The notes under the pieces: model-generated
The model's database searches: none
The model's input: the letters and a program-made list of their open reading frames with translations, nothing else
What the model was told of the DNA's origin: nothing
Assembly (NCBI GenBank): GCA_001780725.1
Contig: MFIM01000001.1
Span: forward strand, 19,642 to 83,641
Direction of reading: 5' to 3'
Length of the DNA: 64,000 nt
Origin: Candidatus Giovannonibacteria bacterium RIFCSPLOWO2_02_FULL_45_28
GTDB taxonomy: Bacteria; Patescibacteriota; Minisyncoccia; UBA11713; 2-01-FULL-45-33
Program-made: the position numbers and the translations under genes
Shown here: piece after piece, positions 41,273 to 42,903 of the stretch
Layout: the number at the start of each line of letters is the position of its first letter
How positions within the stretch are numbered: position 1 is the first letter of the stretch

Positions 41273-42903
41273 TCAAAACAATGAACTTTGTGCTGGCGCT
41301 TTCGGAATTGTTTCTTCTGCTTTAACGTTTTCAATACTTTTTAATAATTCCGGCCCGCCTCTATTTGCGTCTAGCAAGGCGGGTAGTTTTTTGAAATCAT
41401 TTTCCAATTCTTTTAAAACTTGGGTTGAGCGGAGGGCGGCGGCGGGGTGATACAAAGGATAAATAATTTTGGATTTAATAATTACCCCCTTCCCGTGGCC
41501 AAGCGAAATCTTTGCCGACGGTAAAAAATAGTTCATTGAAAACCTCCCCAAAGTCGCGATAATTTTGGGGTCAATAATTTGAATTTGTTTTTTCAAATAA
41601 GGTTTGTACGCCTCAATCTCCTCCGGCAAAGGATCGCGATTTTCCGGAGGACGGCGCTTTACAATATTTGTGATATACACGCTCTCTCTTGGCCATTTGA
41701 TACCCGCCAAAAGTTTATCCAGAAGTTTTCCCGCCTGCCCGACAAAAGGACGCGAGAGCTTGTCCTCATGAAACCCCGGCGCCTCACCGATAAATATTAT
41801 CTCCGCGTCCGGCCTCCCCTCCCCAAAAACCAAATTCGCCGTCCCAAGAAGCGGCAAACTCTTATCCGCCTCCATTTCTTTTTTTAATTTTTCTAATTCT
41901 TCTGCTTTACTCATTTTATTTAAAATTTTTTGCTTGATTTCAAAAGCGTTACAATGTTTCAAAATTCCTAAGTAAGACTGCAAGTTTTTGGCGTTAACTT
42001 TCTTTAATATTCTCCTTTTTGTCTTCGTTCTTAAAACTCTGTGGTATGGTAAAACAACGTAGCCCAAAAAGTCAACCCCTTGCCGTAATTTTTTAAGTAT
42101 AACTTTGTTGGGATGCAGATTCAACTTTAGTCTTTCCCGCAAAAACTCCGCGACTTCAGGCAGAAGCACCTTGAGATAATTTTCGTTTTGGTGCAGTATT
42201 ATAAAGTCGTCAGTGTATCTGAAATAATGCTTAACATTTAATTTATGTTTAACAAACTGGTCAAACTCGTTCAAATAGATATTAGCGAAAAGCTGGGAGG
42301 TAAGATTACCGATCGGAAGACCACATTTACTCTCTCTCTCTCTCTCGGTGTTTTGAGCTGAAAACTGTCAATAATTTCCTCGCAAAGCCACATGGCTTTT
42401 CTGTCTTTAATTCTTCGCGCCAAAATGTTTTTCAGTATTCGTTGGTCAACCGAATCAAAGAACTTTCTTATGTCGCATTTCAACGCAAAACATGGGCCGG
42501 AGTAATTATGGCTTACTTTTCTTGCGGCTTTTTCCAGCGCCGCTACACCTTTATGCGTTCCCTTGCCGATTCTGCAGGAAAAAGAATTGGCAATAAAGGT
42601 CGGCTCAAAAATGAGGTTAAGAACCTTAAAAACCGCGTGATGCAAGACCCTGTCGCGAACAGCGGCTTTGTGAATATGCCTTATCTTAGGGTCGTGAATA
42701 TAGAAAGAGGTGTAAGAATTATGTTTGTAAGTCATTTCCGCAAGCTGGCGATGGAGTTCAAAAAGATTGTCTTCCAGATTAAATTCAAATTCTTGAACGT
42801 CGGCATTATCCTTTTTCCCTAGTTTAAATTTTTTCCACGCTGAAAATAAATTATTTAAATCAATAATTTGTTCGAATATATGTTTATCGCTTCTCTCACT
42901 CAT
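41273..42903 (-). CDS. DGR-type reverse transcriptase fused to a C-terminal family-4 uracil-DNA glycosylase domain; reading frame broken at a (CT)n microsatellite near 42330-42346
   Basis: ORF 42903-42271: FEQIIDLNNLFSAWKKF, NSFSCRIGKGTHKGV, CDIRKFFDSVD (RT motifs 1-3). Next frame: GLPIGNLTSQLFANIYLNEFDQF, YFRYTDDFIIL (YxDD), VDFLGYVV. Then [17 protein letters not shown]...VYITNIVKRRPPENR...YHPAAALR (UDG family-4 motifs). Confidence 0.8.
42330..42346. repeat. (CT)7-8 dinucleotide microsatellite at the RT frameshift site
   Basis: ttta ctctctctctctctc ggtg; read as RERERE in the upstream RT frame. Confidence 0.8.

Follow-up and report, generated by a model that had tools for sequence, protein, structure and literature searches.

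A probable read-through fusion between a diversity-generating retroelement and a resident uracil-DNA glycosylase gene in Candidatus Giovannonibacteria

A 64,000-nucleotide stretch of contig MFIM01000001.1 from the groundwater genome of Candidatus Giovannonibacteria bacterium RIFCSPLOWO2_02_FULL_45_28 (the window; positions below are counted from its first letter) contains a diversity-generating retroelement (DGR) whose reverse transcriptase (RT) sequence passes, without a stop codon, into a uracil-DNA glycosylase (UDG) of the family-4 type. The most likely explanation is read-through from a DGR cassette into the adjoining resident udg gene, which would make the fusion an opportunistic by-product of their juxtaposition. 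In the window the RT is additionally split by a frameshift; intact fusions of 512-528 aa (amino acids) are found in three related protein clusters.

The fused region lies on the minus strand between 41273 and 42903. Its downstream part is an open reading frame (ORF) of 333 aa (41273..42274, minus strand), in which the last 120 residues of a DGR RT (41915..42274, minus) are joined to a UDG of 213 aa (41273..41914, minus) that retains its own ATG at 41914-41912 and ends with a stop at 41275-41273. In this ORF Pfam assigns residues 1-73 to RVT_1 and residues 150-286 to UDG (PF03167, E=1.6e-32); the translation reads ..NEFDQFVKHKL..RYTDDFIIL..LGILKHCNAFEIKQKILNK and then enters the glycosylase with no intervening stop. 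The RT portion extends from the YTDD motif to the thumb, and the thumb end, ...EIKQKILNK (terminus ...KQKILNK), continues in frame into the UDG. The N-terminal two thirds of the RT are encoded in a different frame by an ORF of 210 aa (ORF1; 42271..42903, minus), which has RVT_1 and group-II-RT-like matches and a TGA end that is reached after the frameshift. These frames overlap in the region of a G(AG)8 tract of dinucleotides (42330..42346, in minus-strand sense) that has one AG unit more than the in-frame state. Deleting one AG restores an RT that reads ...TPRERESKCGLPIGNLTSQ... / ...IIDSFQLKTPRERESKCGLPIGNLTSQLFANIYLNEFD..., like the unfused homolog P0005 (..NPRERESKCGLPIGN..). The window RT therefore has a +2 frameshift at the tract, and only its C-terminal third, the last 120 residues, shares the UDG frame. 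An uninterrupted RT frame is absent from the window and intact in the relatives P0002, P0132 and P0134; a full-length RT::UDG is not encoded in the window. The original prediction, an in-frame fusion of a DGR RT to a UDG, stands for the stop-free junction and the last 120 residues of the RT. It had overlooked the frameshift, and its single RT frame running into the UDG is in fact divided between 42271..42903 and the 333-aa ORF.

Could the continuity of RT and UDG be an assembly or sequencing artefact? The sequences derive from metagenome-assembled genomes, and some database members are plainly mis-assembled (P0314, P0407). However, the same in-frame junction recurs in ENA, JGI, NCBI and Logan assemblies and in four lineages whose RTs are 57-92% identical, and an artefact is considered extremely improbable. 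The 333-aa product is present on 13+35 contigs and is included in the GenBank entries KKT29560.1, KKT60126.1 and KKU29973.1 (Candidatus Giovannonibacteria), and the exact 210-aa ORF1 product was found on 50 contigs. Continuity between the RT and UDG parts had been singled out for checking: the junction is no sequencing error, because the independent ENA assemblies L006-L008 encode the identical 333-aa product. They share the (AG)8 tract as well.

When the frame-repaired window sequence was compared with 5.8 billion proteins, RVT_1 and UDG occurred together in three further clusters, namely P0002 (528 aa), P0003 (512 aa) and P0004 (483 aa), along with the full-length fused members P0132 (522 aa) and P0134 (526 aa); fused sequences came from JGI, ENA and Logan. 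Compared with the window, the fused clusters show 57-58% identity over the RT and 76-81% over the UDG, and they have in common the junction ..EQNILK-M-TKAGELENLK... Among the matches listed, only four clusters at 90% identity carry both domains, and the remaining matches in the best 120 are RTs of 303-426 aa without a UDG. No representative spanning both domains appeared in the best 150 representatives at 50% identity, a level at which the known fusions evidently stand as single-domain proteins, so that this search is not an architecture census. No paper on an RT-UDG fusion in DGRs came up in a literature search. The architecture is a real, rare and apparently undescribed DGR variant, which agrees with the initial impression that such fusions were unfamiliar among described DGRs. 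One fused relative, L001, is a complete DGR in which ~22/24 differences between the template repeat (TR) and the variable repeat (VR) fall at adenines. A genome that is 100% identical to it over 6.4 kb (L011, GCA_001000645.1) lacks 68 nucleotides (nt) of the RT just after YCDD (L011:1757 vs L001:8733-8800). The L001 type encodes an intact RT::UDG of 522 aa; in L011, GenBank splits the gene into KKT40663.1 and KKT40664.1, with the UDG intact. This deletion may be genuine or may have arisen in assembly. RT-broken variants with an intact UDG are present in two fused lineages, the window type (50 contigs) and L011.

The glycosylase itself is of the family-4 type. In NCBIfam, the 333-aa ORF scores 165 bits against TIGR00758 ('UDG family 4'; cut-off 125.3) and 179 against the equivalog NF040953, which is under the cut-off of 250. 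Matches to solved family-4 UDGs are strong (Sulfolobus tokodaii 4zbx, E=3.4e-43; Thermus thermophilus 1ui0, 2.4e-36; Thermotoga maritima 1l9g, 7e-34), and motif A (GEAPG), the ITNIVK Asn segment and motif B (HPAAALR) all align with these three enzymes. The definitions used here, GE(A/G)PG for motif A and HP....R for motif B, are those given in PMC10359453. The four cysteines that ligate the [4Fe-4S] cluster of the S. tokodaii enzyme (4zbx) correspond to D, L, R and Y in the window UDG. An AlphaFold model of the UDG domain, built from a 37-sequence alignment, has a pLDDT of 79.7 and a pTM of 0.80; it shows the UDG alpha/beta fold, and its best PDB matches in Foldseek are 1ui0 (E=1.5e-16), the T. 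thermophilus UDGA proposed beforehand for superposition, and 4zby, with TM values of 0.72/0.79. The agreement of Pfam, TIGR00758, solved structures and fold therefore bears out both the domain call first made from the letters and the reported loss of the cysteines. Assignment to UdgX was also considered, by way of a GEQPG motif A, a KRRIH R-loop and a model threshold, and was rejected: motif A is GEAPG rather than GEQPG, TIGR03914 scores 90 against a cut-off of 190, and UdgX structures are more distant. The 213-aa UDG part is identical to an NCBI protein of that length (P0286, A3G55_01525).

In comparison with the family-4 enzymes 1ui0, 4zbx and 1l9g, the window UDG is alike in identity (37-48%), in GEAPG, the ITNIVK Asn and HPAAALR, and in fold, and differs from them in having all four [4Fe-4S] cysteines replaced. 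It is a cluster-less UDG of family-4 type that presumably initiates base-excision repair. Cysteine mutants of family-4 and family-5 UDGs retain partial activity, with the cluster having a stabilising rather than a catalytic role (PMC5295032); by analogy, loss of the cluster would be compatible with UDG activity. A comparable case is that of MutY, which belongs to a glycosylase family partly defined by its [4Fe-4S] cluster and has clades where the cluster is lost (PMC11722440). MutY comes from a different superfamily (helix-hairpin-helix), however, and serves as an analogy for cofactor loss only.

The origin of this UDG can be read from its stand-alone relatives. A search with the UDG part alone returned >100 clusters of stand-alone UDGs of 180-236 aa (most 182-213) that are 67-87% identical, and those with an organism name beyond 'bacterium' are all from Giovannonibacteria or Paceibacterota. 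In the 37-sequence alignment (consensus start M.K.E.LE.LKKEM), most stand-alone relatives begin at the position of the junction Met, which is kept in all four fused lineages, and the window UDG retains all 65 invariant columns, among them GEG, FIGE.PGF.E, RPFVG.AG, N83, KRRP and HPAAALR. Among the nearest 50%-identity representatives (best 150), ~40 lack most or all of the four cysteines and 78 have all four. More than 100 stand-alone relatives are likewise without most or all of the cysteines, so that absence of the Fe-S ligands characterises the UDG lineage as a whole and is not a feature of the fusion.

Synteny leads to the same gene. In the window, the anchors are a VTT_dom/DedA-family gene upstream (44649..45371, minus) and, downstream, an MFS_1 gene (40023..40679, minus) and a PolX-PHP gene (37685..39478, minus), the last of these a candidate gap-filling polymerase for base-excision repair. 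The sister genome L004 (GCA_001001105.1), whose MFS and VTT_dom products are each 88% identical to their window counterparts, has the order VTT_dom, stand-alone UDG (203 aa), a 106-aa ORF, MFS and PolX-PHP, with VTT_dom abutting the UDG. The L004 DGR, flanked by a beta-CASP gene and LDcluster4, is ~5 kb distant and has an unfused RT of 331 aa. In the window, L001/L002, L009 and L010, the DGR cassette stands upstream of the UDG and MFS downstream (followed by PolX where the contig reaches that far); VTT_dom is the gene on the other side of the cassette in the window and L001. The N-terminus of the stand-alone L004 UDG aligns residue for residue with the RT-UDG junction, and the protein shares with the window UDG both the tail ...KAEE..PK.PAQSSLF and the D/L/R/Y replacements. 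A stand-alone Giovannonibacteria gene in the same syntenic place is the ortholog of the fused UDG, and its start codon is the junction Met. The fused UDG has diverged (72-81% identity) in step with the housekeeping genes around it (71-88%).

Close homologs of this UDG have other fusion partners too, including a semialdehyde dehydrogenase C-domain at the N-terminus and an exonuclease plus PolA at the C-terminus (P0200, P0223). The UDG-PolA fusions (the SPO1-type 'bacteriophage-type polymerase'; P0223; PDB 9qhs of phiLo) resemble the present case in joining a family-4-like UDG to a polymerase. There, however, the UDG is N-terminal to a DNA-dependent PolA, whereas here an orthologous housekeeping copy is C-terminal to an RNA-dependent DGR RT.

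The element around the RT is a bona fide DGR. Its target gene (43678..44547, minus) encodes 289 aa with no Pfam match, and the VR (43688..43801, minus) occupies the 3' end of this gene, with 14/14 core differences at adenines of the TR (43266..43379, minus). The Avd accessory gene (42868..43215, plus) matches PF22296 bAvd (4e-16; 59.9 bits, above the cut-off of 40) and NF033474 (1.9e-19; 69.9 bits, below the cut-off of 80). DGR-type motifs can be read in the RT, namely GLPIGNLTSQ (motif 4) and YTDD, and the closest RT homologs are those of the candidate phyla radiation (CPR), with bAvd upstream wherever the upstream gene is shown. The likeness to canonical DGRs, both the Bordetella phage BPP-1 type and those of CPR/Parcubacteria, thus extends to a C-terminal VR in the target, adenine-only TR differences, Avd, and an RT with IGNLTSQ and YTDD. 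The window departs from them in the stop-less passage of the RT into a UDG, the (AG)8 frameshift and an avd on the opposite strand to the target, TR and RT. The called start of avd overlaps the RT start (42903) by ~24-36 nt, and avd is divergent upstream of the RT in all relatives with the upstream gene shown (L001, L003-L008, L010, L012, L013 and L015).

Under the favoured reading, the C-terminal 213 aa would be the ordinary UDG of the lineage, employed in base-excision repair, with the PolX-PHP gene nearby. In one Giovannonibacteria subclade, a DGR cassette (target, TR, avd and RT) is located directly upstream of udg, and the natural C-terminus of the RT, ...IL(N)K, meets the udg start codon stop-free, so that RT::UDG is a single ORF. 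The RT and UDG domains would fold independently, and free UDG would probably still be made from the retained ATG. Where the RT is intact, a lineage would by default make a two-domain RT::UDG, possibly plus free UDG, while in the window only the UDG or an RT-tail-UDG fragment could be made, with the UDG most likely translated from ATG 41914. What we infer is the UDG activity, translation from the internal ATG and the lack of any role specific to the DGR; the domain identities, orthology and synteny, the junction, the frameshift and the DGR hallmarks are shown by the data. An AlphaFold model of the whole 528-aa P0002 fusion has two confident domains, a thumb/linker (residues 293-331) with pLDDT <50 and a pTM of 0.56, so no fixed interdomain interface is predicted, and none was seen when one was sought in this model. 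A Shine-Dalgarno (SD) motif, even a weak one, precedes just 10/48 long ORFs of the window, and most starts are in A/T-rich contexts; the context of ATG 41914, AGCAAAAAATTTTAAATAAA-ATG, is likewise A/T-rich, which makes the retained UDG start a plausible site of initiation.

Several points weigh against such an opportunistic origin. Promoter-like matches upstream of the UDG are not above chance, and use of the internal ATG is a prediction only. Continuity across the junction has been kept in at least four lineages with RTs that are 57-58% identical, and two cassette types with different targets at the same site keep it as well, a persistence that could reflect selection for the fusion. In addition, fused DGRs have clean adenine-specific TR/VR differences, and RT::UDG is at least compatible with retrohoming.

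These points feed an alternative in which the fusion is functional, with the RT-tethered UDG acting on retrohoming intermediates. In one variant, uracil would be excised from the cDNA or the VR strand, and the resulting abasic sites or nicks would aid priming, integration or fixation; in another, the UDG would clear dU out of the cDNA. Retention of a single junction in four lineages and two cassette types would fit this idea, as would the intact catalytic motifs of the UDG and the adenine-specific VR/TR differences of fused DGRs. Moreover, a family-4 UDG can remove dU beside an RNA backbone (PMC5295032), and a UDG-based model of adenine mutagenesis was once proposed (PMC5703328). On the other hand, the UDG is a syntenic housekeeping ortholog that has kept its start codon and evolves at the neighbouring housekeeping rate, fusion is absent from the closest RT relative and from most CPR DGR RTs, and no interdomain interface is predicted. 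The UDG also outlasts loss of the RT, and the dUTP/UDG model of adenine mutagenesis has been experimentally excluded for the BPP-1 DGR (PMC5703328). A functional fusion is accordingly judged unlikely. The link to adenine-specific mutagenesis that the original prediction had offered as speculation is likewise not supported, given the stand-alone ortholog in synteny, the junction Met that is a start codon, the 213-aa NCBI annotation, the lineage-wide cysteine loss, the RT-disrupted variants (window, L011) that keep their UDG and the exclusion of the model in BPP-1. A more elaborate proposal, that RT::UDG is a working unit which promotes or biases mutagenic retrohoming, with the (AG)n tract switching between 'UDG only' and 'RT::UDG', is quite improbable in our estimation; if true, base-excision repair would be naturally coupled to targeted hypermutation, and an on/off switch would be built in.

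At least three DGR cassette types are present in Giovannonibacteria (L001, L004, L015/L016 and the window), with different targets, RTs that are 57-73% identical and three chromosomal sites. Two cassette types share the UDG-adjacent site, so the cassettes seem to move or be exchanged. The window target (MAKLDVV...) is orthologous to that of L004, while the L001 target (MGIVSQ...) is different. In a sliding comparison, the window RT is nearer the L004 RT over residues 80-300, whereas over the last ~25 residues the fused type-B RTs are just as near or nearer. This pattern could mean an old junction with later replacement of the cassette. A third cassette type, unfused and at a third locus, has an RT that ends ...KIKQSIMLK* exactly at the junction position. 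A single fusion origin with loss in L004 was considered and set aside in favour of a more tangled history, given the three types, the three sites and the possibly shared RT tail. The remaining choice is either one ancient fusion with cassette replacement or two parallel fusions.

The (AG)n tract might regulate the element in its own right. As a contingency locus, it would undergo slipped-strand switching of the RT between UDG alone (OFF, as assembled) and RT::UDG (ON), an idea compatible with either reading of the fusion and entertained here tentatively, as a possibility somewhat on the unlikely side. (AG)8 is the sole dinucleotide repeat of >5 units in the 64-kb window, and perfect (AG) or (GA) tracts of 7-10 units occur in 5/5 RT lineages checked at the DNA level. 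They lie in the RT loop just before motif 4 (GLPIGN), as (AG)7 in frame at L003-5:8553, (GA)9 at L012:849, (GA)10 at L013:831 and (GA)9 at L014:839, and (RE)n is found at the same loop in 7/114 related RT clusters. The window and L007 both have the OFF allele and differ at 21/9002 nt, 20 of these in the VR, which leaves 1 difference in ~8.9 kb outside it. When the VR regions are compared (window 43688-43822 vs L007:2465-2565), 14 differences fall in the TR-homologous part, 12 at TR adenines and 2 at TR guanines, and the remaining 6 lie just upstream of clear TR homology. Two histories would account for this: VR diversification could have come first, with the frameshifts arising later in parallel or by recombination, or slippage or frameshifting could bring the RT back from time to time.

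Against switching, all 50 nucleotide contigs (50/50) carry (AG)8, with the reservation that consensus assemblies cannot show minority alleles, and no ON allele was seen at the nucleotide level. The sole in-frame sequence, P0128 (500 aa), is a protein-level (PLASS) assembly; it was first taken as proof of an (AG)7 allele and then downgraded, its sibling SRC sequences P0406 and P0407 being visibly chimeric. The 24 contigs that were read fall into three context types, and two VR haplotypes only are present among the sequences examined. Instead, a variable loop may simply have tolerated expansion of the tract until a recent slip inactivated the RT. A scan for tract-length alleles (CAGCTCAAAACACC N{10,24} TAAATGTGGTCTTCC; metagenome_contigs and genome_contigs) was empty and missed even the window's own allele, which makes it uninformative, and a literature search for DGRs controlled by simple sequence repeats found nothing relevant. 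Nevertheless, the tract recurs, and the VR has changed between near-identical frameshifted genomes, so the DGR RT may be phase-variable.

Other features of the window were noted in passing. A perfect AGGAGG precedes the DGR target gene at 44560-44565 (minus), as one also does the L001 target gene, in a setting where SD motifs are otherwise rare. A decayed second DGR is located at 50140-50851 (minus), between toxin-antitoxin genes and LDcluster4, and the corresponding site in L004 is occupied by its intact DGR. The decayed copy comprises a 99-aa C-terminal target fragment that is 48% identical to the L001 target and truncated by a HicA gene, together with the RT fragments ..QFIKHKLKVKHYFRYTDDFIILHQ.. 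and ..LQSYLGVLRHCNGYKLRMKVFKKLCIM*. Both DGR sites are flanked by toxin-antitoxin pairs, three in all (40703-41156, 50880-51361 and 51509-52108), of which two are HicA/HicB-like and one PIN/VapC-like; one HicAB pair is directly downstream of the UDG, and L010 is arranged alike. Elsewhere, in the region 33061-33807 (minus), ARAGORN calls a standard tmRNA at 33472-33807 and an overlapping 'permuted' one at 33061-33563 that is probably spurious.

The evidence points to opportunistic read-through into a neighbouring housekeeping repair gene, an event that seems to happen readily in these compact genomes. A C-terminal glycosylase of 200 aa also appears to be compatible with a DGR RT that bears the hallmarks of retrohoming. 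The natural RT-UDG fusion is a ready-made test case for UDG-based models of adenine mutagenesis, such as the one that once received serious consideration. Two by-products of this work may be of greater importance, namely the broad clade of family-4-type UDGs without Fe-S cysteines and the recurrent perfect (AG)n tracts in one loop of the RTs of CPR DGRs. The window tract is out of frame, yet the VR still differs between near-identical genomes, a hint that DGR activity could be phase-variable.

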